From a virus (lineage: Duplodnaviria; Caudoviricetes), in IMG/VR virus record IMGVR_UViG_3300028048_000130, positions 7,727 through 71,726 of that record: a stretch of 64,000 nt of DNA; one strand, given 5' to 3'. The notes under the pieces were generated by a model. The model worked only from the letters and a program-made list of their open reading frames with translations, searched no databases and was not told where the DNA came from. Of this stretch, positions 27,067 through 64,000 are shown piece after piece (positions within the stretch are counted from its first letter, which is position 1; each line of letters begins with the position of its first letter). A program made the position numbers and the translations under genes.

Positions 27067-28692
27067 ATGGAAGTATATAGAGATATTGGACGAGTAGATG
27101 GTGGGCCGGTGGTATCTATTGCCGCCGATCCCACTCATTACTCACAAGTGTATCGGGCAACACATGATGGGGCAGGCAAACGCCTGCCCTTCATGGAGCG
27201 TTCTTTTATTAGTTTCTCGTTTGGTGGGCGATGGATTGAGGATTATGGGTTTATTGTGGTCTCCGATGGGACTAGGTATTCGCGCCCACTGTTCTCGGAA
27301 TTCGCACATAGTATTACTGATCTCGATATCATTGATGGGCAAATCTATTGGGGTACTCATTATAATGCTAATTCTCTTTCGTTAACACTAGCGACAGACG
27401 GCATTGAAGATTCATTACTAGATGAATTTAAGAGATGGTTTGCGCCGCATAATACTCGCGAACTTATCCTGTCTGAGCACCCATATCGAGCAATTCTTGC
27501 ACGTCTGTCTAGCGTACCAGAATTCAGTACTTATGTTACTAAAAGAGAAGTTACGAAGAAAATTGGTGGCATGGAGTACAAAACATACACAACTCTTCAT
27601 CGCGGTACTGTCACGTTAGAGTTTATTATGGACGATCCATTTTGGTATTCTATTGAAAATATTATGTGCTATAAAAAGTCAGATGGTACAATAGATTATG
27701 ATAAATGGATAAATGCTAATGGTGAACCTGCGTATGTACTGGAAGATCGTGATGCCATTAAAGTGGTAACGGAAGACGGTGTACCTGTTAATACTATGCT
27801 TAAAATGAACAATATGACTTTTGGCAATGGTACCATCGCGGCAGATTCTGCGGCCTCACGGAAAACGATGGTCGGCGCCGATGGCGATTCTCAATATGCC
27901 GATGTTGGCGCAACTCCTTCAGATACTAATCGCGGTATAATTGGTCCGCTAATTGTAGCAGGTACTAATTTCCCAGCAAATCAAAGTAATGCACAATACT
28001 TCTATTACGCTGGCACGGCCCCTTCCGCGCCAATCCTTAAATTTATACTAACTCCTGAACTTTCAAGTGACGAATACATTATTACTCCTTACAACGCAAT
28101 TAAGCCAACGAATAACTTAGATCATAATTCAATTTTTATTCACAGTACCGATGAAAAAGAATTTAAATTCACAACTCCTGGAATTTGGACAGGTTATAAT
28201 CAAGTAATTGATATTCTTTCAACCGCTGAAGAAGGAGTCTCTTGGGTGCAACTTAGAGAATATATTCGAGATAATGTAAAACACTTCGCGCCCCGTGCGT
28301 ATGGGATAAAGGTAATAGATTCTGTTAAGGGTCAATCTGTTAACGCTACGGCGGCTGCATTGTCGTCTGCCAAGAGCAGTATGCGTAATTTCCTCTTTGA
28401 CTTAAATGGTCAAATACTTACTATGTCATGTGAAATTGACTGTAGAACTGGACGCGCAAAAGGGACTAGCACTTACAGAACAAATACAGATACTTTAGTC
28501 ACCATCGAAGAAAATATTGGAGATATGGTGCGGTCAGATTACTTAAAGATAGAAGATAGGAATTTTCCTAGTGAAGAAGGATACATTGAGCAATGGACCG
28601 CAGCAACCCCTACAAATAGCCATCGTATTTATCACAATGTTCCAAATGGCCTAGGAGAGTTTGAAATCAAATATAAGTATATGTATTTGTAA
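27067..28692 (+). CDS. Distal tail (Dit)-like baseplate protein with insertion
   Basis: Immediately after TMP; SFSFGG, ELILSEHPYR and EFIMDDPFWYS motifs resemble Dit proteins; 541 aa implies inserted domains. Confidence 0.6.
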   Translation: MEVYRDIGRVDGGPVVSIAADPTHYSQVYRATHDGAGKRLPFMERSFISFSFGGRWIEDYGFIVVSDGTRYSRPLFSEFAHSITDLDIIDGQIYWGTHYNANSLSLTLATDGIEDSLLDEFKRWFAPHNTRELILSEHPYRAILARLSSVPEFSTYVTKREVTKKIGGMEYKTYTTLHRGTVTLEFIMDDPFWYSIENIMCYKKSDGTIDYDKWINANGEPAYVLEDRDAIKVVTEDGVPVNTMLKMNNMTFGNGTIAADSAASRKTMVGADGDSQYADVGATPSDTNRGIIGPLIVAGTNFPANQSNAQYFYYAGTAPSAPILKFILTPELSSDEYIITPYNAIKPTNNLDHNSIFIHSTDEKEFKFTTPGIWTGYNQVIDILSTAEEGVSWVQLREYIRDNVKHFAPRAYGIKVIDSVKGQSVNATAAALSSAKSSMRNFLFDLNGQILTMSCEIDCRTGRAKGTSTYRTNTDTLVTIEENIGDMVRSDYLKIEDRNFPSEEGYIEQWTAATPTNSHRIYHNVPNGLGEFEIKYKYMYL

Positions 28693-39677: not shown

Positions 39678-41590
39678 TTTATCTGCTTAGCATAGTATCT
39701 ACGCTTATGCTCTGCCTTTCGTTCTGTAGACCATTTACTAATTTTAGTAAGATAACCAATAATACGAGTCATATAATCTATATTCTCTGAGCCGCACTTT
39801 GGGCACTTCTCGAGAGTGTGCTTACTAATAAAACCGCAATCATTACAAATTGTATTAGCCACATTGAACGTGAAATATGGAGTTCCTTCTTTCATGGCTA
39901 GGTTTAGTAAGAACTTATACTGCTCTTTGGATAGGTGATCGCTAAGATTGCAGTGAAGCGCGGAACCACCGTCAAGTTTTGAAGTAAACTGCTTACCATG
40001 CAGCCGGAACTTATCTACTGGTGAGGTTGACTCATCCTCAACAACATAGAAATAAGAGTTATAGCAGTCGCGGGGTACAAAATATCCATCTGCGCGGTCC
40101 CAGGCAGCATTCTTCACGCCGAGATTTTCAGCGGGGACGAATTCAGTATTGAACATAACTTCTTTCGTTTTGGCCTTTTTATTAGCCTCATAAATAGGCT
40201 CAAGAATGGCGTTCATAAAGGCCTTATAATCTTCGTTGTCACTAATAGCGATACCTAGCGATTCCGCGGCTTCAACCGCACCGTTAATACCAATAGTTAG
40301 ATATTGCTTCTCAGGCGTAACAAAACCAGCATCATAAATCGGGATCATATGATTGTGATACATTTCCATGAGAATGGAGTTAAAAGCAAGCAGATATTTA
40401 TGTACTTTTTCAACTTGTACACTAACTGCTTTTGAAATCCATATTAGTTGATCTTCTTTCTTATCTGGATTTAATCCGTTTAATTCACTAGCATGCTCTG
40501 GATCGTCTGCTTTAGTATACATATCTTCGATCGCATTTTGTACAAGGCGATTAAGGTTAATTGTCATGACGCACTTGCTACCTGTAGAAACTCCGCCCGC
40601 GCCAAGTGTATAAGAAAAGGTATTTTCAGTTATGCCATTACGCAGTCGGCAACAACTTGCTAACGAGTCTACACTATCACTGATATAGGTAAAGAATGAA
40701 TGACCTTCGGAATACATTTCCGCGGCAAAATCGTACCAATCTTCGTCCAGGAATTTTTCGCCATTGTGGAGAAGGCTTAACGTTTCTACTGGGAAGGTCA
40801 ATGGACTAGTTAATCTCTCGTGATTAAACCATTTCATAAATCTTTTCTGAAGCCAACTGACGGATTCCCATTTCATTGTGTCTCCATCGGGAAAAGCGAA
40901 ATCCTCAAAAAGAGACTCGAAATAATTTTTATCGAAATAGGCTACATTCCAGAACACACTTTGGAAGCCTCGCGCGCCGGCAGGCTGATTTAAAGAATAG
41001 ATAACTTGCTCAAAAGACTGCACAAGAATATCATTTACAGTTTCATTGGTAAGCGAATTAACAATCTTATTTGGATTCTTATAGTAGTCTTCTCCATATT
41101 CTTTACGAATAAAGTGGTCCATATAAGCTAGGAATTCTGGAGTGGCTACTGCACCGCATAACTCTGACGCTACCGCAAATACCAGATTAATAAAGCCGCC
41201 AAGATATGAACGTAGGTGATGCGGCGGTTTACTTGTACCACATATTGTAGTCATTCCATTTACAAGAAATGGATAAAGTGTGATGCTCGCGCAGTAAGGC
41301 GTTCCTATTGGTAAGGTCTCATCATGTCTATAAATTTCATGGTCTTCAAGCTGTCGGATATACTCGTCTGCAAGCTCTTTACCATAAAGCTCTGTAATAC
41401 GATCATGCATCCATAACCGATTAGCAAAAATATTATCCTTTTTGTGAATTTCAGGCGCCATTGTAGCAATGTTTTTACTAGAGACATTACTGTTTGCGTC
41501 AACTTCACTTCCGCTAGCAGCATTGGCGGCCTTTAAATATTGTTTAATAAAATCGATGTCTTTTCTATATTTTTCGTACTTTTCAATCAT
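39674..41590 (-). CDS. nrdD: Class III anaerobic ribonucleoside-triphosphate reductase
   Basis: SCCRL, PAENL, C-terminal CNDCG/CPKCG Zn site and RIIGYL glycyl-radical motif. Confidence 0.93.
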   Translation of the reverse strand: MIEKYEKYRKDIDFIKQYLKAANAASGSEVDANSNVSSKNIATMAPEIHKKDNIFANRLWMHDRITELYGKELADEYIRQLEDHEIYRHDETLPIGTPYCASITLYPFLVNGMTTICGTSKPPHHLRSYLGGFINLVFAVASELCGAVATPEFLAYMDHFIRKEYGEDYYKNPNKIVNSLTNETVNDILVQSFEQVIYSLNQPAGARGFQSVFWNVAYFDKNYFESLFEDFAFPDGDTMKWESVSWLQKRFMKWFNHERLTSPLTFPVETLSLLHNGEKFLDEDWYDFAAEMYSEGHSFFTYISDSVDSLASCCRLRNGITENTFSYTLGAGGVSTGSKCVMTINLNRLVQNAIEDMYTKADDPEHASELNGLNPDKKEDQLIWISKAVSVQVEKVHKYLLAFNSILMEMYHNHMIPIYDAGFVTPEKQYLTIGINGAVEAAESLGIAISDNEDYKAFMNAILEPIYEANKKAKTKEVMFNTEFVPAENLGVKNAAWDRADGYFVPRDCYNSYFYVVEDESTSPVDKFRLHGKQFTSKLDGGSALHCNLSDHLSKEQYKFLLNLAMKEGTPYFTFNVANTICNDCGFISKHTLEKCPKCGSENIDYMTRIIGYLTKISKWSTERKAEHKRRYYAKQIK

Positions 41591-42010: not shown

Positions 42011-43092
42011 ACTTTCCTTTCTCTTAAATTTGCGTAAGATTGTTTGAATAGCCCACTAGCATTTGGGAAATATTTTAAAACAATATCACGCTGGTCACGC
42101 AAATATGCATTTTTCTTATTGGAAATTTTCCCGCGTCCTTCTAGCCGCTCATCCATTGTAGTATATTTATCAAAAAAATTGTCTCCATTTATCCATTTCA
42201 CAATTTCTTTTTCGAGGTCTTGGATTGGATTTGTGTTGTCTTCTGAATATACGAATTTTGTTTTTATTGGGATATCGCTACTCCAAAATGAATATAATAG
42301 ATTTATTTTATAAACTAAATCTTTATAGTAATCATAGGAGGTTTTGCATGTACCGCCTAATTCTAAATATACCGTTGACGTTTTTGTTACATCCGCTAAA
42401 AATTTATTTTTATACTTTTTTAGCATGAACGCAACATCCGTTAGAGGAATATTAATATCCAGTATGAAAGTTGATGCGCGCGAAAACCTATTAAAATTCC
42501 GTATTGTAAAATAATCAGCTAACGTCCTACAGTATACTGGATGAATTGGAACAATCATACTTGGATTACGTTTTACGATATTTTGTAACACATCCTGCCA
42601 ATCATCGTAGAAAATGTCTCTATCAAACAAATAAACTCTTTTCTTTGCGATTATTGGAGGTATTGGCAATTTGTTATCATTTGCCCGCATACGATAATAG
42701 CTATCATCCAGCACATGATTAATTGCTTTTATCTTCGCACCAGCCTGAAAACGTTGCTTTAATATTTCCTTATATACGAATGGCTTTGCAATAGTGTAAT
42801 CAATTATTTCATTTTCAAAAGGTTGATATTTACCTTTTGTGAAAGCGCTGCCGCCATAAGCTACATTTTCAGCCGCGCGAAAAGCATCAGGAACATTTAT
42901 CTCTCTATTAATTTCGCTGAAGAAATAAATTTTATCATAAGCCCCTAATTCAGTTTCATTCAAATCAATTAAGCGGCAAAAAGTATTTTCTTCTTGCCGA
43001 TAATACGTGGCTAATTTCATAATCTCTAGATTAGGGATCATGTAAGATTGAGAAGATTGAAGGTCGTAATCTACTAAACCTATGATTTTAAT
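41998..43092 (-). CDS. Hypothetical protein with radical-SAM-associated-type N-terminus but no CxxxCxxC; start probably non-ATG upstream of 43041
   Basis: PNLEIMKLATYY, YDKIY and YGGSAF segments; frame open upstream as ATT-AAA-ATC-ATA-GGT (IKIIGLVDYD) behind GGAGG. Confidence 0.55.
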   Translation of the reverse strand: MKIIGLVDYDLQSSQSYMIPNLEIMKLATYYRQEENTFCRLIDLNETELGAYDKIYFFSEINREINVPDAFRAAENVAYGGSAFTKGKYQPFENEIIDYTIAKPFVYKEILKQRFQAGAKIKAINHVLDDSYYRMRANDNKLPIPPIIAKKRVYLFDRDIFYDDWQDVLQNIVKRNPSMIVPIHPVYCRTLADYFTIRNFNRFSRASTFILDINIPLTDVAFMLKKYKNKFLADVTKTSTVYLELGGTCKTSYDYYKDLVYKINLLYSFWSSDIPIKTKFVYSEDNTNPIQDLEKEIVKWINGDNFFDKYTTMDERLEGRGKISNKKNAYLRDQRDIVLKYFPNASGLFKQSYANLRERKVWRI

Positions 43093-46000
43093 CAGCCTCC
43101 AATCTTTCCCATTGATACTCTAACGTATCATTGTCTGTGTTTATTATTTTCATTATAACTGGATAAATGGACGATTTTGTTTTCCTAGGAATGAAATTAT
43201 GATCTCGCCTGATACCTTGAATACGTAGTAACGTCCCGCGCCGGAACCATGATTTTTCCAGAGTATGTTTTTTACCATCTTCTCCAATTTGTGAAATTTG
43301 TTTGTCGTATAATGCAAATTGATTTTTATAAATTTTTACTGGAACAACACCGGTTGGAGTAAGTAAAGTTATTAGTTTTTTTTTCTTGTCTTTATCAATA
43401 ACTGTACCAATTATTGTATGAATTTTATAAACCTGTACTAAGCGGCCATCCTTCGCATAAAATTCATATTCAACTTCCGGATCTTCTGGTAGCTTGTTAA
43501 AATCATCAAATGATTCTTGAAAATTCGCAAGTTCATGATCATGATAATAAAAACTAAGAGATTCCATTTCCCAACTGCTAATATTACCCATCGCGTACTT
43601 TTCTTTAACTTCATTATACAATGAACTATTTATTTTTTCAAGTATTTCGCTTTGATTCTCTTTTAGGTAGGCGCGCATGGGATCCATTGCTTTTTTATAA
43701 AGATTGTCCCAAGTTTTTTGCAGAATTTTGTCTCCATCTTCTGTATAATCGAGACTAAAGTTTTTATCAATAAACTTAATCGCGGCTTCATTTAGCTGAT
43801 AATAGATGCCATCTTTATTTGTCTTTAAGAATTTATTAAAAAGATAAAGTTTCTTATAAAGTATCATAGATTCGGGAATTAATTCTTTATCAATCAACAT
43901 TTGCATATTTTGTAATGTTAATCTCATTTTCTTATCAGCAATTTTATTTAAGTAGTCGCGCATTATTTCTAATCTATCTCCACTGCTGACCCCATCAAAT
44001 GCTCCAGATTTTATCAAATATAATAATTGCAACTTATTTGTCTTTATCTTACTATTAAAATCGTCAATTGATGTATAAGGTCGATTACTAATAATCTCTT
44101 TAATCAAGTCATCTGAAATTCTCGTTATGCCACGTAAACCGTAAGTTATTGTATTATTTTTTTCGTCTGGTGTAAAAGTATACTTTGAGAAGTTAATGTC
44201 CGGCGGCAAAACCTCTATGCCATAAGACTTAAACCTGTTAATAGCAGTGCTTATCTTTCCATAATCTACTGTTTTTTTAACTTTCTTTACATTACCACTT
44301 GCATCTTTTATCTCAATATAATCATAACCATCGTAATCATCTGCGTCATAGCTGTCTGTGTCGTCTTCTGCCGAATCTTCGTCTATATCTGCGTCTTCAT
44401 AAGACTCTTCCGTGTCTTCCATCTGCGCGAATGACGCGCTATCAACAATCAGATTCGCTGTATTCCAATATATTAATGGATAAAACCTAGCCAAGTTCAT
44501 CTCCTGAAGTCCGATTAATGAGTACGAGAGGCAATGACTCAAGTTGAAAGAATAACCAAACTGACAGCTAATAAGTTTTTCAAGAACATACGTTACTAGC
44601 TTTTTGTCGCAGCCCTTTTCTTCTGCATTCTTATAATACTCTTCTCGAATCTTCGCGAGTTCTGCTGGTTTCTTTTTCGCGATGCCTTTACGCATACGGT
44701 CTGCCCACGCGAGAGAATTACCGCCACATTTCTCTTCTTGCACTAGAATCATCGCAGATTCTTGGCTTTCGCACATTCCTTGAGTAATTGCTGGATGATG
44801 GGCCAGCCATTGGACATCTTCTTCTTTTAAGCCATATTCGCGCATTTCATCGTACCATTGGGTAATATCCTCTCGATATCTTGCCCAGGTATCTAGCGGT
44901 TGTTCCGCACCCTTTTCACTCGCCATTAGACGAATAACAGAGTTAAGAACTGCTAATTCTTCTACACTTTTTGGCTTAATCAGTTTTATCCCCTTAATTC
45001 CGCTATCTTGTTCCATTTGAAACAATGAAATTACTTTACCATTCCATATATTTTCCCACATCTTAGGGTCGTCTCGGTTAATATTATATGGTCCTAAGAA
45101 TTTAAAATAGCGTTCTTTTAGAGATAGATTTTTATCAATATACCCTGCCTCGGTTAAAAGATCAAGACAAGTTCTAATTCGTACTAGACCTTCAGTTGCA
45201 AGCATATCAATTTTTACATCACTTAATTCTTCGCTTTGGTGAAGATCATATGCTGTAACATAGTCTCCACTTTTTAATTTCATTAAAGAATTTGTTTTTG
45301 TTATATCTTCATCATAAATAATAACTCCACCCGCATGAGAGGATTGGCCAGTTACTAATCCTTCAATTCTTTGCGCGACTTCCCATAGATTAGGATACTT
45401 ATTTATTTCTGCAACAAATGTTTTATTTGACTGAAAATCTTTTTCAGGATTTCCATAATAAGTATCATGCAACGAACGTTGCTGTCCTCTATCGGATTCG
45501 ATCATTGACGCTAGAAAAGACCCAACATCATTATCAATTTCTAGTCCACGACAGGCAGTTAATATCGCAGATTTGCTTGCTTCTGTTTTTTTGGTCATGA
45601 CTCGTACGACGTTGAACTCTCCGTATTGCTTTTGTAATGCGGCTATGACTTGATTTCTGTGAGTGGATTCGACATCTGTGTCTATATCGAGTATACTTGC
45701 CCTTTGGGGGTTGATACGAGATTGTCCTATTTTTCAATAAGCTCTGACTATATCATCTATCTTCTACATTTTTATGAACTCTATGATTAGTATCGATGCC
45801 AAACTCTTTTAAATTATTACTTACTGTCGTAAGAGTAACACCCAACTGTTCCGCTGTTTTCTTAGCATTGCAATTATTTTCTTTATATAATTGCAATAAT
45901 AAATTTTTATCTTTTATTTTCCGTTGAGTGTTAGTCATAATGCCTTGTTCTTTTAATTTTCTAGAAATAAAAGCTCTAGAAAGATTTAGCTGTTCACTAA

Positions 46001-48101
46001 TCTTCTGTATACTAAGGCCACTCTTATACAGATCTATAATTTGAGGAATTACTTCTTCCTCTAGTCTGCCGTACTTTTGTTCCCATTGGGTATATATATG
46101 AACATTTAGCATATTAAACAATTGCATAACGGTTTGACTGTCATGACCAAATTTTTCAGATACCTTAGATATTACTTTAACTTCTGAATAGTATTGAATC
46201 ATTTCTTCGGCTTCTTCATCATTTATTCTTTGTTTCCCGTGACCACCTATCGTTTCATTATAACCCTTTTTATATGAGTCATAATATTTTATCCAGTACT
46301 GCTCACGTTCATCAAGTTGACCAATTTCCAAACCGCTTTCAATACATTCAAACTTAAAATTTTCGTATCCGTATTTGTTTAATGCATGAACAATTGCTAT
46401 CTTTGGCGCGTATGATTTTCCTATTATATTTCTATAATATTTCCATCTACGCGCACAAGTATCATATATAGTTTGCCCAATATATACTTTACTATTTATA
46501 ATATTCGTTATTTTGTAGATACAAGCCAAAAGATCATCTCCTTCTTTTGCACTTGTAGAAGATAGCTGGATGCTTCGAAGTGTGCTAATCTCACTCCTAC
46601 TCGGCTACATTCATCGCCGATAGTCGATACACCTTCCTAATTAATTGATTAGGCTCGGCACGGGATTGTCATATCAAAAGACTTAGATTTCCCCGTTAGC
46701 ATGAATAAATTCATACACCGCTTTTGCTTGCGTTCTTCCAGTTTTACGAGGTCTATTTTCCCTAAACCTCCAAGGTTTCATTGGGGCTTTTTCGGCCAGC
46801 GGATTGATTTGCGTGATGCCAAGCATATAATTTAATGTTTCGGACACTGCGCTTCCGCGGCCTGGCGCGATAATTGTGTTACCGTCTCGCCAGATGATTT
46901 CAATATAATCTGCCATTTGAAGCAGATATTTTGTCCACTTCATTTTCTGAGTTTCTGAGGATATCCATAGATAATCTAGTTCTAGTGATAGTCGCTCGAT
47001 ACTTTCTGGCCTAAACCAAAAATCTCTATCAAACCATTCATCGCCTTTTTCCATAAAAGAAACAATACGATTTATAAAGATTCGATCACTTGCTTCAGGA
47101 GATTTTAAAAACCTTAAGAATTTTTCATTATCTTTTAGTTCCTCTGGCAAATCCGTTCTTTCTTCTGTATGAAGAGGAATGAATGGCAATTTAAATGGTT
47201 TCTTTAACGAATACTCTTCAATTTGATCTCCAATTAAACAAGTATTCTTTAAACACTCATTTACTTTTTCTGCGCCAATATTACTGTCCAAATAACTATG
47301 AATTTCTTCTTCAGACATCGTATAGGCTGATGCATAGAAATCATCTACTTCTCGATCGCCATCTTTACTATTGAGAAAAGCACGCTGAAGTGGAAGATCT
47401 TCTGCTCGTAGCATATGGCTATCTGTAGTTATAATTGCCTTCGCGCCGGTTTCCTCAGAAAGTTTTAGTAACATTTTATTTACTTTTAATTGATCTCTCT
47501 GTTTAGAAGGCTGTAGCTCCAGGTAAAAGTTATTATAACCAAAAACTTTTTGAAGAAACTCAACAAATGAATGAATCTTCTCTTGAGGTTCGCCCGCGAG
47601 AAGCATCTTATCGATCATTGATCCAAGACATGCAGAACTTCCAATAATATGACCGCGATCTTGTCCAATTATTTGTTTTAAATCTGCAAAATAAATCAGC
47701 GGCCGAACCATATTATTTTTAACAAAGCTTCTTTTATAAGCTATTGTAGAAAGTTGTCTTAATTGTTCGTGACCTTTTTCATCCTTAGCTAATAAAATAA
47801 AATGATAAAAATAATCAACACCGCGCTCAAAGTTATCTGCATTCAAGCCATTACGACATAGATATATTTCATTACCTCTTATGAGCTTAAACTTCTGCCA
47901 ATTTGAGTCTTCTTGTCTTTTTTTCTCAATAAAATTTTCTGCGGTTACATGGGCACTTAAGCTTTCGTGATCGGTTATTGCTAAACCAGAAGCTCCTAAT
48001 TCAAATCCTCTCTCAAGAAGTGGCCCCACTCGATTAATCGTATCAATTAATCGAGTATTAGAGCCCTCATCATCATGATTATGTAAAAGATAATAACTCA
48101 T
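43088..48101 (-). CDS. dnaE: DNA polymerase III alpha subunit (family C), spliced: complement(join(43088..45716,46765..48101)), about 1,321 aa
   Basis: PHP motifs, GRGSA, restored WRF|INPQRASILDIDTD catalytic segment, SHAGGV, KIDML, YSFNLSH and C-terminal OB-fold. Confidence 0.92.
45717..46764 (-). mobile_element. Group I intron 4 (1,048 nt) in dnaE; ORF in P8 loop
   Basis: P1 AGGUU|UA / UAGACCU with U.G; CTAACGGGGAA, AATCCCGTGC, R GTATCGACTA, S GATATAGTCA; P8 CTATCTTCTACA/TGTAGAAGATAG flanks the ORF; terminal G 45717. Confidence 0.9.
45753..46529 (-). CDS. Intron-encoded GIY-YIG homing endonuclease with C-terminal HTH repeats
   Basis: CIYKITN..KVYIGQT, LDEREQYWI, GYNETIGG; RBS AAGGAG, TTG start. 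Confidence 0.88.
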   Translation of the reverse strand: MACIYKITNIINSKVYIGQTIYDTCARRWKYYRNIIGKSYAPKIAIVHALNKYGYENFKFECIESGLEIGQLDEREQYWIKYYDSYKKGYNETIGGHGKQRINDEEAEEMIQYYSEVKVISKVSEKFGHDSQTVMQLFNMLNVHIYTQWEQKYGRLEEEVIPQIIDLYKSGLSIQKISEQLNLSRAFISRKLKEQGIMTNTQRKIKDKNLLLQLYKENNCNAKKTAEQLGVTLTTVSNNLKEFGIDTNHRVHKNVEDR

Positions 48102-49929: not shown

Positions 49930-51072
49930 TCACCTTATTTTTACCCTTGTTTTATATAATTGTTCAAAAACTTCTTTACCTCTATCAAAAGGAGAATCTT
50001 TTTCTTTCAATAAATTATTATAATCCCATATATATGAAAACGAAGCTAAGTTCGTGTATTTTTTACACATTGATTCTATCTTATTTCGATATTTTGTTGC
50101 TTTTTCGCTCCAGCAATTGGTATACTCTTTATCAAACGCAACTGTGATTTCATTTACTCCCAGATAATCAGTAAGTAAACTGATATGATATTTATTAAAG
50201 TTGGAGCCACAACAAGCCACTGTATTCGCATACTTACCATAATATACACTATCTAATAGAACAGACTTTTCCCCTTCTACTATTATTGCGGAGCGTCTTG
50301 TGCGTATTCCTTTGGCATGTTCGTATATACCATACAAATTAAATTGCAATGGATGAGTGTACATTATATTTCCAATCTGAAGAGGCCGGTACTTTCCAAA
50401 CTCCTCTATCTCTTCTGGGTCAAGAGTTCGCGCGCGAATGCCTACTAAACGATTATCAATATCAAAATGCGGAATTATAATTTTATTTTGAGCTATTGAG
50501 AATCCGATATTGAATTTATCCATTACTTCTTTTGTAATGCCTTCACGCAACCAAGTCGGATGATAATATTTTGTGAAATAAGTAAGAATCTTTTTTGGAT
50601 ATTCCTCTAGTTGAGGAATATTATTTGAGTATCTATATTTATCAATATCATAAAGATAAGAATAATTTTTAGTTGTAGAAACTGTACTGATATGCTTTAA
50701 ACATTTCTTAACATATTCTTCTGCTTCTTCATCACTAATATTTAAGTTGCTATTAATCCACATAAACTTCTGATACAACTTAAATATCGTCATGTTTTCA
50801 TTGCACTCAGTATAACAATGAAAACTTTTATTTTGCTGATACCAATACAACTTCATTGATTCCGCTTCTTCCAACGGATTATGACATATGGTAGGGCAAA
50901 CGAGATAGCCTTTCTCGTTATTAACTATAATTTGATCTACTCCTAAGCTTTCAAGAAAGAACTTCACATCTTCTAATGTTATAGAATTAAAGATATCTCT
51001 TTTCGAGACTCCTATATAATCAAGTTCTGGGTCTTGTAAACTTAAGCTAGTAATCATACTGAATCCTTCCAC
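49930..51072 (-). CDS. dnaG: DNA primase (Zn-binding + TOPRIM)
   Basis: CPTICH...HCYTEC Zn module, VGIRAR, IIVEGEKS and AFDKE; true start may be a few codons downstream. Confidence 0.82.
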   Translation of the reverse strand: MEGFSMITSLSLQDPELDYIGVSKRDIFNSITLEDVKFFLESLGVDQIIVNNEKGYLVCPTICHNPLEEAESMKLYWYQQNKSFHCYTECNENMTIFKLYQKFMWINSNLNISDEEAEEYVKKCLKHISTVSTTKNYSYLYDIDKYRYSNNIPQLEEYPKKILTYFTKYYHPTWLREGITKEVMDKFNIGFSIAQNKIIIPHFDIDNRLVGIRARTLDPEEIEEFGKYRPLQIGNIMYTHPLQFNLYGIYEHAKGIRTRRSAIIVEGEKSVLLDSVYYGKYANTVACCGSNFNKYHISLLTDYLGVNEITVAFDKEYTNCWSEKATKYRNKIESMCKKYTNLASFSYIWDYNNLLKEKDSPFDRGKEVFEQLYKTRVKIR

Positions 51073-52655
51073 TTGTCAATTTCTACTTCTTCTGAAGTTT
51101 TATACAACGTTAGTGGTTCCATTAATGGTTGATTATCCGCGTTGGTTATAAATAAATCTTTCCGATAGCCTGTTCCAAGATGAATATTAGTCCAGATACG
51201 AACATTTTTATAGCGGCCACGCCGCATTTTATATATATCAATTACATGTGTAGGCCGATAGCTTGTATCATTTATATATTTCGCGTCAATAAGCCCGCTT
51301 CTTACGCCCGTCCTTAGCGCTGGAAGGATCTCTTCCCACATTTTTTCGGACACGCGCGTCATTACGTAACCCATATCCGCTTTATCTGCCACCGCTTTGG
51401 ACCCGCGAATGCATGTCTCATCCTTGAACGCGCCATCATTCTCCATACCCTTCGCGTTAACCTGCGTGCCGGTAAAGAGAAACACATTATAATCCTTAGC
51501 TATTTGTTTAAGTTGGTTCGCCATCATCATTAGAATACTATCTTCTCGCAAATTATTTTTTGAGAACTGATTCATCATGCTAGCGGTCGAATGAATATAG
51601 TCAAATGCAACATACTTTACATCTTCAACAGTTACATACTTTTTAATAGTGGCTTGTACATTTGTAAGATTTGGATCGCTTATTTCCTCAATAAAAAAGT
51701 AACCACTATATCTTTCAATAATTTTTGCCGCAAATTTTACTCTAGTTAATTCTCCAAATTCATATTTGCCAGTCAAAATATGATCTTCATCAACTCCAGA
51801 TAAATAAGCTAACATTATTGTCTGTAACTCTTGCTTATCCATCTCGGTTACAATGAAAAGAACTTTTCTTGGCTCACGTATTGACCCATCTTGTAAAGTT
51901 TCGTAAACAAAAGTTTTCTTATCATGCGACCATCGCGCTGGATAAGCTAAACGACACATATCAAATATGAATGTACGAGACTTACCGCCTGACGTGCTAG
52001 AGGATTTCAAAAACATACATCCTTTTCGCGCGCCACGGCAAACACTACTAAAAATTTCGCCTTCTAATTCTGGTCCAATGCTTGGCTTTGTTTGTAGCTC
52101 TTCAATTAATTCGAATATACCTTCAGCAGGATCGCCCTGGGCTTTGCCGCCATTTAGATATTCGTTACGTATAATATTATAATTACTTTCTATAGAATTT
52201 AATATATCTTCCATAGAAGATTCATCAAAACGTTCCTGAATTTTAATTGCCTTTAATGGGTCATCTATATCTTTGTCATCAATATAAAATTCACTAATAT
52301 CATACTTTTCTTTTTGTAGACGTCTTAGAAGTGAGCATTTCTTTAAGCGCGTATAATACATTTTAAAATTACTTAATTCTGCAAATTCATACGCGGCCTT
52401 TAAGAACTCCAGGCCGCCATTCTGCTTATAGATAATCGCGCTATTTTCATGTCTGTCTACTTCTTGATCTACCTCAATCGGAGATAAGGTTGTCGCGCCT
52501 TCTGTATATAATTTTTTTATAACAATAAAACAGATGCGTATAACTTTTATATCAAAATCATTTGGATTAATATCTTGATATTCTAGAAAAAGTAACGGAT
52601 TCTTCATTAAACAGCCAATAACTTGGCGATATGCCATTTTATCTGATAATGTCAT
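51054..52655 (-). CDS. dnaB: Replicative helicase (DnaB/SF4-like, YorI-like)
   Basis: Variant Walker A SSTSGGKSR, LFIVTEM, YVAFDYI, TGTQVN, DKAD and KMRRGR. Confidence 0.8.
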   Translation of the reverse strand: MTLSDKMAYRQVIGCLMKNPLLFLEYQDINPNDFDIKVIRICFIVIKKLYTEGATTLSPIEVDQEVDRHENSAIIYKQNGGLEFLKAAYEFAELSNFKMYYTRLKKCSLLRRLQKEKYDISEFYIDDKDIDDPLKAIKIQERFDESSMEDILNSIESNYNIIRNEYLNGGKAQGDPAEGIFELIEELQTKPSIGPELEGEIFSSVCRGARKGCMFLKSSSTSGGKSRTFIFDMCRLAYPARWSHDKKTFVYETLQDGSIREPRKVLFIVTEMDKQELQTIMLAYLSGVDEDHILTGKYEFGELTRVKFAAKIIERYSGYFFIEEISDPNLTNVQATIKKYVTVEDVKYVAFDYIHSTASMMNQFSKNNLREDSILMMMANQLKQIAKDYNVFLFTGTQVNAKGMENDGAFKDETCIRGSKAVADKADMGYVMTRVSEKMWEEILPALRTGVRSGLIDAKYINDTSYRPTHVIDIYKMRRGRYKNVRIWTNIHLGTGYRKDLFITNADNQPLMEPLTLYKTSEEVEIDKWKDSV

Positions 52656-53137
52656 TAATCATCCAACCAATCATCTGGATTTAGTTGTTCTACTTTTTTC
52701 TTTGACTCCTCATTAATTGAGACAATTGTCTTTTCTTGCTCTGTGTTGATTGCTCGTATAAAAGAATTCCCTTGTGATTCTCGCATACGTTTATACTTTA
52801 ACATTCTATCTACCGTTGGCGGCGTTACCAGACACAATGATTCTGCTAAAATTTTCTTATTCTCCACATGATAAATGTATTCAAGGCAATCAACAATCGT
52901 CTTGTCCGTATATCCGTACTTTTCACGCAAACGTTTTCGCTCGGTCCAGATTCGTGGTCCAGGATTTTTTAATCCAAAAATTTGCGATACTTTTGCCGCG
53001 AACATTTCACGACTTTGCTTTTCTTGTAAGCAATCGCGGCAATACCAGTGCATAGTCACACCTTGTCCAGCATACTGAATTAATTCGGTGCGGCGAAATT
53101 CTTGCTTGCATCCATAACATTTAAGAGTTATTTTCAC
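52655..53137 (-). CDS. Zn-finger protein, putative helicase loader (YorH-like position)
   Basis: GTG 53137 behind AGGAGTG; CYGC...CRDC; between AAA ATPase and helicase. Confidence 0.55.
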   Translation of the reverse strand: MKITLKCYGCKQEFRRTELIQYAGQGVTMHWYCRDCLQEKQSREMFAAKVSQIFGLKNPGPRIWTERKRLREKYGYTDKTIVDCLEYIYHVENKKILAESLCLVTPPTVDRMLKYKRMRESQGNSFIRAINTEQEKTIVSINEESKKKVEQLNPDDWLDD

Positions 53138-53165
53138 AACATCACTCCTATTTTGATCTAGGATT

Positions 53166-53194
53166 ATTATACAATAAGTTGGAAAAAAGGTCAA
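53166..53194 (-). promoter_or_regulatory. Sigma-A-type promoter for loader-helicase-primase-recJ
   Basis: TTGACC-17-TATAAT. Confidence 0.85.
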
Positions 53195-59732: not shown

Positions 59733-61597
59733 AATTCAAATCCTCCAAAATCAATTTGCTGCACAAATTCTTTACGAGGTTCTACTTCTTCTCCCATAAG
59801 AGACAATAAAGCATTGATCCCCTCTTCAGAAGGCATTAGTTGTTCGAGATGCTGGTATTTTGAGTTAAATAATGATTCTTGCAAATCTTTAGGACTCATC
59901 TGACCAAGACCTTTATAGAATACAATATTTCCTTCTTTTTGAGAACGATTATTTACCTCATCTTCTGAATAATAATACCATGTTTTCCCTTTATAGTCAA
60001 GCTTACAAATAGGTGCTTTTAGCCAATAAAGTCTACCTTCTTGGATAAATTCTGGGCATAGCTTTTGCAAGATTGACATTACGAGCAAGCCTACGTGCGC
60101 GCCGTCAAAATCGGCGTCGCTGCTTATAGCAATTTTGCCATAGCGAAGCTTTTTATTATTGTATCGCTGGCCATATATCAATCCAAGTGCTTGCAGAAGC
60201 AGTTTTACCTCTTCGTTCTCTAACACTTTTTCAATAGGATTCGCGAGCGCATTAATGGCCTTTCCGCGTAGCATCAAAATGCCGATGTGATCGCCATTTT
60301 CTGCTTTCTGACGCCCGGTGCTTATTGAGCCTCCCGCCGAGTCTCCCTCCACGACCACAAGCGTAGACTCTGGTCCAAGGACTCGCGCTTCCCTTAGTTT
60401 ATCGCTAGTAATGAACTTCTTTTTGGCCGCAACTGTCATTTCTTTTTCGTGATTTAATACAGCATTATATTCACGCTCTGCGGCCAAATTTGCTTTATTG
60501 ATTTTTGTTAATAGAGATAATACTTTCTCAAATTCATCTCTATGAGTAGTTGAGAACTGCTTTAAAGCTTCTGTAAATGCTTTATCTGCAAGCGGCTTAA
60601 GGCTTCCGTTATTTACGCGCATTTTTGTCTGATCGCTAAAACTTGCGTGCGGAACTTTCGCGTTTATAACATAACATAGATTGTTACGTACAAAGTCTCC
60701 AGTAAATTTTTCTCCAGCAAGATTATTCATAGTGCGAGTAATTGCAGTTTTCGCGCCAGTTAGACTAGTGCCGCCATTCAGATTATGTAGTCCATTTGTA
60801 AAGACAAAAGACATTTCGGTTTTGCTTCCCCACAAGAAAGCAATCTCCATTTTATTACCTTCATTGTCTTCAGTATAATATACAAATGGCTCTTTCTGAA
60901 TTGCCGATTTTAATTTTGCACGAATGAAGTCTGAAACACCATTTTTTGAGTAGTAGGTAACGGTTTTATTATTTACTACATCCGTTAGTACAAAAGTTAA
61001 TCCTTTATTCAGATAACTCCAATCCTCACACATTTGACATATGTCTTTAAATGACATATGAATTTCTTCAAGATGATATACATCTGTTGATGGACAAAAT
61101 TCAATATACGTACCTTGCGGCTCTTTTGAGGGTGTTACTTCATATTTCTTCTTTTCTCCGCGATGCAGAATAAGCTCTGCGCACTTACCATCACGGTAGC
61201 TCCTTGCGCAAAAATCTTCAGAAGAAAGCGCGACGCCTTTGATACCCGTTCCGTTCATCCCAATAACCGCGGCTCCGTATTGCTTATCATTGAATTTGCC
61301 GCCAGTATGCGGACTCATGAGTGTCGCGATCATTGCTTCTGAACCATCGGCCCGCTTTCCAAAAGGAATAGATCGCGCATAGTCACGACAAGAAAAAATA
61401 TTTTTTTGGGTATCAACAGTTATTTCTATTTTATTACCATATCCAATAGAGAATTCATCAATGGAGTTACTGATAACTTCACGAATACACTGGAGAACGC
61501 CCTGGTTGTCTGCGGATCCCATATACATTTCAATTCTTTTTCGGATTGCTGTTACGAAATCCAAAGTTTCAATTGAATTGGCATCATACTTATCCAT
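59729..61597 (-). CDS. gyrB: Type IIA topoisomerase subunit B (GyrB/ParE-like)
   Basis: ATG 61597 behind GGGAG; EVISNSIDE, HTGGKF, GMNGTG, VEGDSAGG, LRGK, DADFDG and YKGLGQM. Confidence 0.9.
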   Translation of the reverse strand: MDKYDANSIETLDFVTAIRKRIEMYMGSADNQGVLQCIREVISNSIDEFSIGYGNKIEITVDTQKNIFSCRDYARSIPFGKRADGSEAMIATLMSPHTGGKFNDKQYGAAVIGMNGTGIKGVALSSEDFCARSYRDGKCAELILHRGEKKKYEVTPSKEPQGTYIEFCPSTDVYHLEEIHMSFKDICQMCEDWSYLNKGLTFVLTDVVNNKTVTYYSKNGVSDFIRAKLKSAIQKEPFVYYTEDNEGNKMEIAFLWGSKTEMSFVFTNGLHNLNGGTSLTGAKTAITRTMNNLAGEKFTGDFVRNNLCYVINAKVPHASFSDQTKMRVNNGSLKPLADKAFTEALKQFSTTHRDEFEKVLSLLTKINKANLAAEREYNAVLNHEKEMTVAAKKKFITSDKLREARVLGPESTLVVVEGDSAGGSISTGRQKAENGDHIGILMLRGKAINALANPIEKVLENEEVKLLLQALGLIYGQRYNNKKLRYGKIAISSDADFDGAHVGLLVMSILQKLCPEFIQEGRLYWLKAPICKLDYKGKTWYYYSEDEVNNRSQKEGNIVFYKGLGQMSPKDLQESLFNSKYQHLEQLMPSEEGINALLSLMGEEVEPRKEFVQQIDFGGFEL

Positions 61598-61625
61598 TAT
61601 TTTCTCCCATCCTTTCTTTACTGCT

Positions 61626-61654
61626 ATTATACCATGATTTTGATTATTAATCAA
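61626..61654 (-). promoter_or_regulatory. Sigma-A-type promoter for topoisomerase genes
   Basis: TTGATT-17-TATAAT with TG extended -10. Confidence 0.82.
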
Positions 61655-61740
61655 GAAAATTTTTTTGCGCGACAGCGCATATTTTTATTTTTCCTTATAC
61701 ATATTTTTATTTTATATATTTATATATATTTATATTACTC

Positions 61741-61853
61741 TACCAATTTTTGACCTCTAAACTACCAAAAATTGGTAGTTTGACGGTTCAAACTACCAAA
61801 AATTGACCTCATCGTGGTCAAAAATTGACCACACTGTGGTCAAAAAATGGTGC
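61741..61853. repeat. Repeat array A: 5 pseudo-palindromes with CTACC/GGTAG and GGTC/GACC half-sites around A/T spacers
   Basis: Units at ~61741, 61763, 61793, 61816, 61838 (spacing ~22/30/23/22); e.g. ACTACCAAAATTGGTAGT, GTGGTCAAAAATTGACCAC. Confidence 0.85.
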
Positions 61854-61865
61854 AATGAATGGCTA

Positions 61866-62219
61866 CTAATTTTTATAGCTTTCTTTAGCATTACCCGCAG
61901 GATAGAAATACACGACACTTTCAGATATTTCAATCAAATAATCTGCCTTTATTAATTCATCTTTTATAGCACGTATAGTATTTTTACTACCAATATTTAA
62001 AACTTCACATAGGTGAGTAGGCGAAAAATCATATTGTCCTTTCCCGCTCCATCGTAATAAATAAAACCATAATTTAAAAGCATTTGCGCTTAGAGTCCCT
62101 AAAGCTTTATCATAGTATTCCCAATTTATTGGTTGCAGAAAAGCATTATTTGTTCCCTCTTTATGCGTAATTGCATCAAACTGCTTGATTTCAATTCGCT
62201 TTTGGTTCTTATAATTCAT
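61866..62219 (-). CDS. Winged-helix protein, replication-initiator-like (paralog 1)
   Basis: LSANAFKLWFYLLRW...DFSPTHLCEVLNIGSKNTIRAIKDELIKADYL; paralog of 63737..64000. Confidence 0.65.
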   Translation of the reverse strand: MNYKNQKRIEIKQFDAITHKEGTNNAFLQPINWEYYDKALGTLSANAFKLWFYLLRWSGKGQYDFSPTHLCEVLNIGSKNTIRAIKDELIKADYLIEISESVVYFYPAGNAKESYKN

Positions 62220-62251
62220 CTGAATCTTCTCCTGAATAACTGATATAAACG

Positions 62252-62434
62252 TTACCTCTTTGCCATTTTAGTGGCTACAGGGATAGCGTTCCGAAAATCA
62301 GGAGTATCCTCAAACCAATACACATCATATTGCGGCTTCTTAATATTAGGAGTTACCTTAACGATTTTAAATCCGAGTTCACGCAAGGCAGCCGCGACAC
62401 GAGGCATGTAGATGATGTAAAGTTTGTTTTCCAT
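62252..62434 (-). CDS. Small DUF5659-like protein
   Basis: YIIYMPRVAAALRELGFKIVKVTPNIKKPQYDVYWFEDT recalls the DUF5659 pattern; RBS AAGGAG. Confidence 0.6.
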   Translation of the reverse strand: MENKLYIIYMPRVAAALRELGFKIVKVTPNIKKPQYDVYWFEDTPDFRNAIPVATKMAKR

Positions 62435-62503
62435 ATTTTACTCCTTAATTATTTATGATTTAATAAAATTAAACTAAAAGCTTAATTGTAATTTTGATTA
62501 TTT

Positions 62504-62821
62504 TTATTCGTAGTCTTTATTAATTTCCCACATAAACTCTCTTAGTTTTCTCACAACACCACCACCGCATGGTCGTAATATACCTTGGTAAATTTCATCA
62601 TCAATATTATCTAAGCATTCCTTTGAGCAAAACAATGCATGAAATTTATAACCTCTTGCATACATTGCTGTAGGTAGTATTGTAATGCTCATAAGCGGAA
62701 ATTTAAAAACATGTACAATCTTTGAGTTAAGATGTGGTGGTACATGAATATAATTTTTAATATCATCCGTAACTTGTTGTGCCTGTTCTACACTATTACA
62801 AACAATTCCAATCTCTATCAT
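62504..62821 (-). CDS. Hypothetical protein
   Basis: 105 aa; ATG overlaps upstream stop; ARGYKFH segment. Confidence 0.5.
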   Translation of the reverse strand: MIEIGIVCNSVEQAQQVTDDIKNYIHVPPHLNSKIVHVFKFPLMSITILPTAMYARGYKFHALFCSKECLDNIDDEIYQGILRPCGGGVVRKLREFMWEINKDYE

Positions 62822-63150
62822 TATTTCTTCTCTCTTTTCGTTTTTTGGCCCTTAATTGGCTTCTCAATAACATAATGACCACGCATCTGCTCTACTGTAA
62901 GACCTTCTGGCGCGGGCATGTAGTGCGCGCGCGAAGTAGCATATGATGGCATTTCCAGACTAAAGCTAATGTCGAAGTTCTCTTTTCCTTCGTTTCGAAT
63001 TGCAGCATAGAATTCAGAGTCATAATCTTTTCGATCTTTATTATAAGCTCTCGTAAAATGATGTCGTGCAGACCGCTCCGGATGAGAAGATTTATTGACG
63101 AAGTATTCACGGGTGGATTTGTTAATGATGATGTAATAGATCATATCCAT
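62821..63150 (-). CDS. Degenerate GIY-YIG-like protein
   Basis: MIYYIIINKSTREYFVNKS..HF...SEFYAAIRNEGKENF; fold-like pattern but the YIG motif is altered. Confidence 0.45.
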   Translation of the reverse strand: MDMIYYIIINKSTREYFVNKSSHPERSARHHFTRAYNKDRKDYDSEFYAAIRNEGKENFDISFSLEMPSYATSRAHYMPAPEGLTVEQMRGHYVIEKPIKGQKTKREKK

Positions 63151-63188
63151 AATTGGTTTTGTCCTTTTCTTTCTTTTTCTTTTCTTCT

Positions 63189-63217
63189 ATTAAAGCATAA
63201 AGTGTCAGAAAAATCAA
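63189..63217 (-). promoter_or_regulatory. Probable sigma-A-type promoter for 63150..61866 genes
   Basis: TTGATT-17-TTTAAT with TG extended -10. Confidence 0.6.
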
Positions 63218-63341
63218 CTGCTTATTTTCTTGTTCTTATATGCTTCAATTATAATACCAAAATTTGGTTCGCTCCGCGAACCATATCTTTATCCATATCT
63301 TTACCCCTATCTATATTTATATTTATATATATCTATATTGC

Positions 63342-63502
63342 TGTACCAAAATTTGCGTTTTCATGTACCAAATTTTGCGTTTTTATGTACCAAAATTTGG
63401 TACATAATTCGGAAAGTGTACCAAAATTTGCGTTTTTATGTACCAAAAAATGCGGCATTCAGATCCATCAAAATTTGATGGCAGATTATGTACCAAATTT
63501 TG
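63342..63502. repeat. Repeat array B: TGTACCAAAATTTG-type units
   Basis: TACC at 63344, 63366, 63388, 63419, 63441, 63491 (22/22/31/22), full palindrome TGTACCAAAATTTGGTACA at 63386; CATCAAAATTTGATG at 63466; isolated copy at 63255. Confidence 0.88.
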
Positions 63503-63610
63503 AGGGGAGATTTCTTTAAAAATCTTTCCGTCGCGCAATTTGCGCGACCATAGTATTATTGATAGCACTATTTTAGCATTATTATAGTATTATTATATAT
63601 TAATATTACT

Positions 63611-63716
63611 CAGGTAATTTTTACCTAAGGGCATAGGTAATTTTTACCTATACCTTAGGTAATTTTTACCTATGCCTTAGGTAAAATTTGCTTAAGGGCT
63701 TAGGTAATTTTTACCG
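63611..63716. repeat. Repeat array C: 5 x AGGTAATTTTTACCT palindromes
   Basis: AGGT at 63612, 63635, 63657, 63679, 63702 (23/22/22/23). Confidence 0.9.
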
Positions 63717-63736
63717 CATTCAGGAGCAGATAAAAA

Positions 63737-64000
63737 TTATAATATTGAATCTGGTGTAAATATCCATATATTTGTTTTTCCATCTTCTAATTTTAAGCAA
63801 CCAGATTCTTCTAATTCTTTTCTTGCTAGTTGGAGTCCCTTTTGACTTATACCAATTTCTTCATTAATACGCTTCGGAGAAAAATCAAATATACCACTTC
63901 CCGCCCATGAATAAAGATATTCCCATAATTTATATCCGTTACCTGTCAATTTTTTCATTGCGGCTTTTTTATACTTCCATATCACTAAAGGCGCATAGCT
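63737..64000 (-). CDS. Winged-helix protein, replication-initiator-like (paralog 2; 5' end outside window)
   Basis: Frame open to window edge (SYAPLVIWKY...); LTGNGYKLWEYLYSW...DFSPKRINEEIGISQKGLQLARKELEESGCL. Confidence 0.65.
   Translation of the reverse strand, partial: SYAPLVIWKYKKAAMKKLTGNGYKLWEYLYSWAGSGIFDFSPKRINEEIGISQKGLQLARKELEESGCLKLEDGKTNIWIFTPDSIL

Follow-up and report, generated by a model that had tools for sequence, protein, structure and literature searches.

Stacked iteron cassettes beside winged-helix genes, candidate replication origins in a group of large rumen siphophages

The cassettes and their genes

The window analysed here, 64,000 nucleotides of IMG/VR record IMGVR_UViG_3300028048_000130, makes up the final 64 kb of a viral contig of 71,726 bp without terminal repeat and with a CheckV completeness of ~42 %. 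Towards its end it possesses three cassettes of one anatomy, A (61666-61853), B (63265-63506) and C (63530-63718), two of which adjoin genes for small winged helix-turn-helix (wHTH) proteins. All genes concerned are located on the minus strand and the cassettes are to be read in that direction, in which the order is gene, array of dyad-symmetric sites (iterons), AGTAATAT with AT-rich tract, hairpin, optional promoter and next gene. An earlier reading made from the sequence only had described three repeats of one architecture, and every element listed there (hairpins, AT tracts, phased sites) is present; the order of elements had to be corrected because of the minus-strand orientation of the genes.

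The sites have the same geometry everywhere, 5 bp + five A/T + 5 bp (15 bp). Five sites are present in A, seven in B and five in C, mostly phased at ~22 bp with one 31-bp step each in A and B, which agrees with the 5-7 pseudo-palindromes with A/T-only spacers at ~22-bp period reported before. The motif between sites and AT tract is (G)AGTAATAT, or AGCAATAT in B, and the AT tracts, 58-61 bp long, end in TATGG followed by a GC-only hairpin. The hairpins reported in the sequence-only reading are confirmed at 61666-61679, 63265-63283 and 63530-63548, with DNA folding energies of -6.0, -8.7 and -10.5 kcal/mol and z-scores of -2.4, -5.2 and -4.2 for A, B and C, respectively. Perfect 5+W5-7+5 palindromes (W, A or T) occur 24 times on the contig, 14 of them inside the three arrays, versus 4-11 in each of ten composition-matched sequences simulated under a first-order model. 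A 24-mer of the AGTAATAT type has two copies in the window versus 0 expected. Tandem intrinsic terminators formed by neighbouring half-sites were rejected as an explanation of the arrays, since they are not kept in relatives, whose sites are direct hybrid repeats.

From the contig end towards gyrB, the series starts with the wHTH-C gene (63737-64000, minus strand), which codes for an initiator-type winged helix and has its 5' part cut by the contig end. Array C (63610-63718) contains five dyad iterons AGGTA-W5-TACCT (starts 63610-63700; spacing 23, 22, 22 and 23 bp). AT tract C (63549-63609, 84 % AT) begins with GAGTAATAT in gene direction and ends in TATGG, and GC hairpin or dyad C (63530-63548) consists of an 8-bp stem and a 3-nt loop. 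Array B (63343-63506) comprises seven iterons of the form GTACCA-W-TTGCG or GTACCA-W-TGGTAC (starts 63343-63490; spacing 22, 22, 31, 22, 25 and 25 bp) and is an orphan, with no cognate wHTH gene adjoining or elsewhere in the contig. AT tract B (63284 to ~63341) is 79 % AT, partly degenerate, and begins with AGCAATAT; hairpin B (63265-63283) again has an 8-bp stem and a 3-nt loop. A single extra A/B-type dyad, ATACCAAAATTTGGTT (63252-63267, read from the sequence), abuts hairpin B and overlaps a TATAAT. It lies upstream of the operon of orf109, orf105, the DUF5659 gene and wHTH-A, and may be an autoregulatory operator.

A promoter-like site ahead of orf109 (63189-63217, minus strand; TTGATT-17-TTTAAT with TG extension) is called by consensus match only. 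The product of orf109 (62821-63150, minus strand, 109 aa) resembles a GIY-YIG nuclease domain standing alone, with only its N-terminal part matching the homing-endonuclease family phrog_7168 (E 8e-6), orf105 (62504-62821, minus strand, 105 aa) has no family match, and the next gene (62252-62434, minus strand) encodes a small DUF5659 protein (Pfam E 3.3e-6). A DUF5659 gene also precedes wHTH-A in the A-type relatives G001, L006 and L080 (tblastn, 73-78 %). The wHTH-A gene (61866-62219, minus strand) codes for 117 aa with an initiator-type winged helix. Array A (61740-61853) consists of five iterons, dyad or hybrid, in which the half-sites CTACC and TGGTC flank W5; they start at 61740, 61762, 61793, 61815 and 61837 (spacing 22, 31, 22 and 22 bp). 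AT tract A (61680-61739, 93 % AT), which begins with AGTAATATAAATATATATAAATAT, is a candidate DNA-unwinding element and one of only two stretches on the 71.7-kb contig with at least 92 % AT over 50 bp. Hairpin or dyad A (61666-61679) has a 5-bp stem and a 4-nt loop, and is followed by a sigma-70-type promoter for gyrB and the replication cluster (61626-61654, minus strand; TTGATT-17-TATAAT with TG extension). The distance from stop codon to nearest site is 14 bp for wHTH-A and array A and 22 bp for wHTH-C and array C, close to the ~20 bp estimated previously.

The cassette region heads a replication cluster of gyrB, gyrA, DnaB-like helicase, primase and split DnaE-like polymerase genes encoded just downstream. 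The cluster belongs to a minus-strand replication block running from ~35 kb to the contig end, with RuvC, dUTPase, NrdD, the split DnaE-type polymerase, RecJ and primase, besides the DnaB-like helicase (51054-52655), Sak4, GyrA and GyrB. A 179-aa protein is encoded upstream of the helicase (52655-53194).

wHTH-A and wHTH-C are paralogs, sharing 39 % of residues over 57 aa (E 2e-13). The relative L115 encodes a third type, wHTH-B (136 aa), which is 37 % identical to A and 32 % to C, and identities between the three types range from 31 to 42 %. In profile searches all three types match phrog_186 and phrog_270, with phrog_186 E-values of 4e-7 for wHTH-A, 7e-8 for wHTH-B and 2.9e-5 for wHTH-C (phrog_270 E 1e-4 for wHTH-C). 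The former family is annotated as DnaD-like helicase loader, the latter as replication initiation protein, and the matches cover the N-terminal wHTH only (profile positions 14-103). Both window genes thus match an initiator N-domain family, in support of the initiator identity proposed for them earlier. An AlphaFold (AF2) model of wHTH-A from 20 homologs, with a predicted local distance difference test score (pLDDT) of 82.6, displays 30 disordered N-terminal residues and then a winged helix. Orthologs of wHTH-A number 35, and full-length members of the wHTH-C ortholog family measure 113-115 aa. The N-terminal peptide M(A)NYxNQxxIxI (residues 1-12) is kept across A, B and C, whereas the wHTH diverges; with a pLDDT of 55-71 it is predicted to be flexible. 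By analogy with the RepA C-domain in elements resembling phage-inducible chromosomal islands (PLE; PMC8263062), its conservation may reflect docking to a shared partner or contact with a shared replisome.

A third small winged-helix gene of the contig (56505-56843, minus strand, 112 aa) is located between the gyrA region and a 302-aa open reading frame (ORF) with a faint SSB match. Its product scores 27.1 bits with MarR_2 against a Pfam cut-off of 27 and matches phrog_186 weakly, and no iteron array adjoins the gene.

One slot, three alleles and a stack

The relatives are uncultured rumen siphophages of ~150-185 kb (contigs of 150-184 kb), including one complete genome of 184,104 bp (G001, also L088). 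The stretch occurs in public runs from gut metagenomes of cattle, sheep and goats, and blastn of the region against GenBank phages returned no match. A scan of IMG/VR with the AT motif yielded mainly unrelated low-complexity matches, the real ones being L065 and L080 only. The B-type pattern gave just a chance match in IMG/VR, and L115 came from a metagenome scan for the B motif. Relatives collected by GyrB (L001-L003) were set aside as too distant; L001 is without a cassette beside gyrB.

Every relative examined over the slot possesses one wHTH gene with one cassette, of type A, B or C, at the same syntenic position. Orthologs of wHTH-A (59-97 % identity) are present in L004, L006, L008, L080 and G001, each followed by array, AT tract and GC hairpin. 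The 24-mer AGTAATATAAATATATATAAATAT is identical in L004, L006, L080 and G001 and diverged in L008, and the sequence of the GC hairpin differs among the A-type relatives. G001 contains only one cassette, at 135 kb, and only one phrog_186/270 match, the A ortholog. Orthologs of wHTH-C occupy the same slot in L096, L097, L099, L102 and L106, in the order ligase, ClpP, PhoH, ..., permease, ..., HTH_3, wHTH, cassette, ..., gyrB, gyrA, with GGTAAAAATTACC-type arrays followed by GAGTAATA, AT tract and dyad; the array of L096 has variant sites ending in TTACA or TTACC. The B type is represented by L115, with the same synteny (PhoH upstream), in which the wHTH-B gene (L115 4099-4509) is followed by eight B-type sites, AT tract, hairpin and TTGACT-17-TATAAT.

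At the DNA level the window resembles all three alleles: A modules share 72-75 % identity with 61667-62438, the L115 B cassette shares 73 % with 63281-63501, and C modules share 70-72 % with 63547-63995. Protein type matched iteron type in all 13 wHTH/array pairs, a covariation at the level of types; the sequence-only reading had called for a comparison of recognition-helix residues with half-sites. The distance from AGTAATA to the dyad is 57-65 nt in the nine cassettes of relatives in which it was measured (L097 and L102 are not among them). A promoter TTGACA/TTGACT-17-TATAAT follows the hairpin in L004, L008, L065, L080, L096 and L099 and is absent in L006, L097 and L102, all of which keep array, AT tract and dyad. 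The gyrB gene is split in L006 and L008, as the DnaE-type polymerase gene is in the window, and in L006 (8529-11357) a GIY-YIG gene sits between the parts.

The same iterons are not confined to this group. Many unrelated contigs in IMG/VR carry arrays of the C-type motif. In L113, the gene of a phrog_270 initiator (E 3e-22) contains a GGTAA-W3-TTACC array in-frame, directly behind its wHTH part, which is the arrangement of lambda O, and L103 has such an array inside a phrog_270/186/428 protein. In L108, L112 and L107 arrays directly follow initiator-type or O-like wHTH genes and are succeeded by an AT tract and a dyad. Judged by sequence, these outside phages furnish the strongest functional evidence for the cassettes. 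They also bear on the earlier remark that no described phage system with this layout was known: the single cassette is not unique to this phage but standard in the group, occurs in unrelated phages as well and is ordinary, and only the stacking is unusual. Two marine metagenome contigs of ~1.4 kb (L114, L117) contain two inverted blocks of 5-7 GGGTACCAAATTTGG-type repeats at ~22-bp spacing, which flank a ~60-nt spacer beside a tRNA-like gene (by eye); this looks like an unrelated element using similar iterons.

For the stack itself, assembled contigs of other public runs were compared over 61400-64000, depths being contig depths. In run X3, from another study, a 930-nt contig links wHTH-C with its array and hairpin to the orf109 side and shows 152 other bases where the window has 63157-63524, i.e. 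cassette B is missing; this contig overlaps one of 3998 nt, which extends through wHTH-A and array A as far as gyrB. In run X4, from a third study, cassette B is connected to the A side by its hairpin, AT tract and first sites. The probable source run is X1, where the B piece has a depth of 12.7 versus 27-30 in its flanks, and a variant of depth 15.6 is also present; depth differences among bins of this run are used only to call B polymorphic. A chimeric assembly of co-occurring strains of types A, B and C is an extremely improbable source of the stack. The contig does end inside wHTH-C, and the B piece of X1 stands at about half the flank depth among strain variants. However, the contigs of X3 link the C module to the A module and X4 links B to the A side, and a chimera would be expected to swap modules rather than to set them in tandem. 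The C and A stack in X3 together with B in X4 argues that the stack is not an assembly artefact and that B is an indel-polymorphic orphan.

The stack is a mosaic in which module C is complete, cassette B is an orphan, two small ORFs unrelated to the modules come next, and module A is again complete and accompanied by its DUF5659 gene, and by sequence the lineage looks like one that stacked these parts by recombination or module shuffling. The stack of orthogonal modules proposed from the window thus stands as far as the stacking goes, with the correction that it resembles a recombination mosaic whose orphan B is present or absent between strains. In X1, a short AT-rich intergenic stretch (62444-62530) reaches a summed contig depth of ~600-1600 versus ~27 elsewhere, probably a low-complexity word shared with other abundant DNA.

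Proposed origin function and its alternatives

On the basis of the observed anatomy, family match, allelism, co-variation of protein and iteron, and recurrence of the stack in independent samples, each cassette is probably a lambda-ori-like replication origin specific for its initiator. Phased repeats (at least three sites) and an adjoining AT-rich element, as in iteron origins, are found in all three cassettes. We infer binding, unwinding and helicase recruitment, as well as any activity of B, along the following lines. The small wHTH protein, probably a dimer, would correspond, as a stand-alone protein, to the N-terminal domain with which phage O/DnaD-like initiators bind the origin. One dimer would occupy each dyad, and the 5-7 iterons, phased at about two helical turns, would build a wrapped nucleoprotein complex that destabilises the adjacent AT tract. 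This tract, of fixed length (~60 bp) and bounded by AGTAATAT on one side and by TATGG with the GC-rich dyad on the other, would open, the dyad limiting the opening, and the DnaB-like helicase, primase and DnaE-type polymerase of the phage would enter there. The initiator-origin modules of different specificity suggested by the sequence-only reading are in keeping with the wHTH family, the type-matched arrays and the iterons inside initiator genes, origin activity itself being our reading of these; its suggestion of origin switching finds no support.

Several results weigh against origin function. A helicase- or loader-recruiting C-terminal domain was not detected in the 113-136-aa wHTH proteins, and neither the contig (G000) nor the complete genome G001 yielded a separate phrog_186/270 C-domain. 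The matches to families are of modest strength: Pfam DnaD_N and HTH_36 remain below their cut-offs for the window proteins (HTH_36 18.7 bits versus a 25-bit cut-off). PDB sequence and Foldseek matches are generic and non-significant (MarR, MntR, the RepA_N 'MDR initiator', DnaD-N, TubR), so that structure cannot separate initiators, repressors and TubR-like winged helices. On the strand opposite to the genes, the hairpin with a T-rich run resembles an intrinsic terminator, which has no role in the origin model. Mapping of the origin by GC skew, also proposed earlier, reveals no signal at the cassette of G001 (135 kb), where cumulative skew turns at ~41 kb and ~167 kb; skew in this genome follows gene orientation and is therefore weak evidence, neither for nor against an origin at the cassette. 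A 142-bp AT-only tract with short direct repeats (G001 40291-40432), at the cumulative GC-skew minimum and the point of divergent transcription, is a competing origin candidate; the equivalent position lies outside the present contig.

We consider it unlikely that the arrays are operator- or enhancer-like instead, with the wHTH protein switching or insulating transcription between the early operon (HTH_3, DUF5659, wHTH) and the replication operon. In that case the AT tract would serve as UP element or promoter, and the hairpin would act as terminator or as 5' stabiliser. The repressors MarR and MntR rank as high as initiators in fold and profile searches, a strong promoter often follows the hairpin, the extra dyad after hairpin B overlaps TATAAT, and in L006, L097 and L102 the ribosome-binding site of the next gene comes directly after the dyad, so that this gene is transcribed through or from the cassette. 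However, the arrays end ~110 bp or more upstream of the -35 box with AT tract and dyad in between, and only the dyad at 63252-63267 overlaps a -10-like hexamer; sites overlapping or closely flanking a conserved promoter are otherwise not found. The downstream promoter is dispensable, which weakens the operator alternative, whereas array, fixed-length AT tract and dyad are conserved. The AT tract is without a canonical TTGACA-17-TATAAT, though the phage uses such promoters elsewhere, the same iterons are located inside initiator coding regions of other phages, and 5-8 phased sites are atypical for an operator. Centromere-like or genome-organising sites of the ParR-parC or TubR-tubC kind, with the wHTH protein coating the repeats to segregate or position phage DNA, are very improbable. 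Typically, parC and tubC consist of phased repeats to which small dimers bind, and TubR is both the best PDB sequence match of the profile (4asn, E 0.02) and a member of the fold list. Yet the TubR matches are not significant, a fixed-length AT tract with dyad is not part of known centromeres, and Tubulin/TubZ (PF00091) and the ParA family AAA_31 (PF13614) were not found in G000 or G001 (ParM-type actins were not searched); the lack of a TubZ- or ParA-type match disfavours partition. A tyrosine integrase was likewise not found in the contig or in the complete G001, so that, with no TubZ- or ParA-type match either, no plasmid-prophage lifestyle is indicated.

A further alternative, improbable in our view, leaves one true origin and regards the extra cassettes, i.e. 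orphan B and possibly one whole module, as competitive devices. Heterotypic iterons would titrate the initiators of rivals, or a heterotypic wHTH protein would occupy a rival origin, with incompatibility or exclusion as the outcome. B has iterons without a cognate gene and is present or absent between strains, and all three specificity types share one habitat, the runs with the stretch being gut metagenomes of cattle, sheep and goats. Precedents are lambda iterons on a plasmid, which silence rep-lambda phages (PMC3349717), and mimicry of origin specificity in the conflict between ICP1 and PLE (PMC8263062). Against this, the evidence is purely circumstantial, the partly degenerate AT tract of B (79 % AT) fits passive decay, and a recombination remnant explains the data without any function. 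It is also quite unlikely that the stack as such is a selected device in origin conflict, in which two orthogonal initiator/origin pairs would let replication survive interference with one specificity and orphan B, possibly with the GIY-YIG domain, would titrate or attack the initiators or origins of co-infecting relatives of type B; origin parts would thereby serve incompatibility between phages. Two other functions were rejected. The wHTH family and a position far from the head module argue against a packaging site, and hairpin promoters of the N4 type for a virion RNA polymerase are dismissed since the 3551-aa ORF of the contig encodes a tape measure protein beside Dit.

Known systems and further observations

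In lambdoid origins a GC-rich palindrome follows the AT tract. The present cassettes resemble ori-lambda in that dyad-symmetric iterons, predicted to be bound by an initiator wHTH domain, stand beside an AT-rich unwinding tract, and, as among lambdoid phages, group members carry different, presumably non-interchangeable initiator/ori types at the same map position. The lambda origin, with four 18-bp iterons joined to a 38-bp high-AT sequence, is located within gene O (PMC3349717), between the DNA-binding and P-binding domains. Here, in contrast, the DNA-binding protein is separate (113-136 aa), the iterons lie 14-22 bp past its stop codon, the recruiting domain is not found, and two or three heterospecific modules occur in tandem.

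In Staphylococcus aureus pathogenicity islands (SaPI) and other phage-inducible chromosomal islands (PICI) the initiator gene is followed immediately on its 3' side by the origin, whose iterons adjoin an AT-rich region that melts (PMC6092414), and the window likewise displays an origin-like cassette directly 3' of an initiator-type gene. In the RepA_N initiators of PLE, the DNA-binding domain co-varies with the origin, the other protein part is conserved and modules are swapped by recombination (PMC8263062), comparable to the conserved MANYxNQ N-terminus and the divergent wHTH described above. These satellites differ in their large initiators with a helicase or RepA C-domain, and in PICI the AT region has iterons on either side; the present genome is that of a large phage (~170-185 kb), a lysogeny integrase is not found, the iterons are on one side only and modules are stacked. 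The profile match to the N-terminal wHTH is shared with Firmicute phage replisome organisers and DnaD-like initiators of the SPP1 G38P type, of which only the N-domain is present here. The iterons of SPP1 G38P are located within its gene or adjoin it, and an AT-rich region accompanies them.

Auxiliary iteron arrays without their own initiator gene are present in iteron plasmids (P1 incA, F incC) near the complete initiator/origin unit, and multi-replicon plasmids can carry more than one replicon on one molecule. Such plasmid control arrays bind the initiator of the origin itself, whereas array B is of a third specificity type, the protein of which the contig does not encode, and copy-number control finds no support in a lytic phage. 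Modular initiator/origin specificity at one locus is already known from lambdoid phages, SaPI/PICI and PLE. New are the split design of a wHTH protein alone with iterons after its stop codon, the series of three alleles that share a single 15-bp geometry in a group of large uncultured rumen phages, and the stacking in tandem of modules of different specificity, among them an orphan array that is polymorphic.

If the cassettes act as origins, they identify the replication origin and the initiator of a widespread group of large uncultured rumen siphophages, together with a split initiator in which the DNA-binding domain stands alone and the iterons follow its gene. The three alleles would constitute a natural set of orthogonal protein/iteron pairs, useful for studying the evolution of wHTH specificity and as orthogonal origin parts. 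The strain-polymorphic stack would then provide a concrete case for phage competition via origin specificity, as with ICP1 and PLE.

Two features lie apart from the cassettes. The DnaE-type polymerase gene is split into two ORFs (46683-48101 and 43088-45598; in all 43088-48101, minus strand) with a GIY-YIG/HNH homing-endonuclease gene (45753-46529) in between. On the plus strand, the 3551-aa ORF matching a tape measure protein (16409-27064) is followed by a gene for a Dit-like protein (27067-28692) and a 1790-aa ORF. Judged by the length of its tape measure, the siphovirus tail should be exceptionally long.

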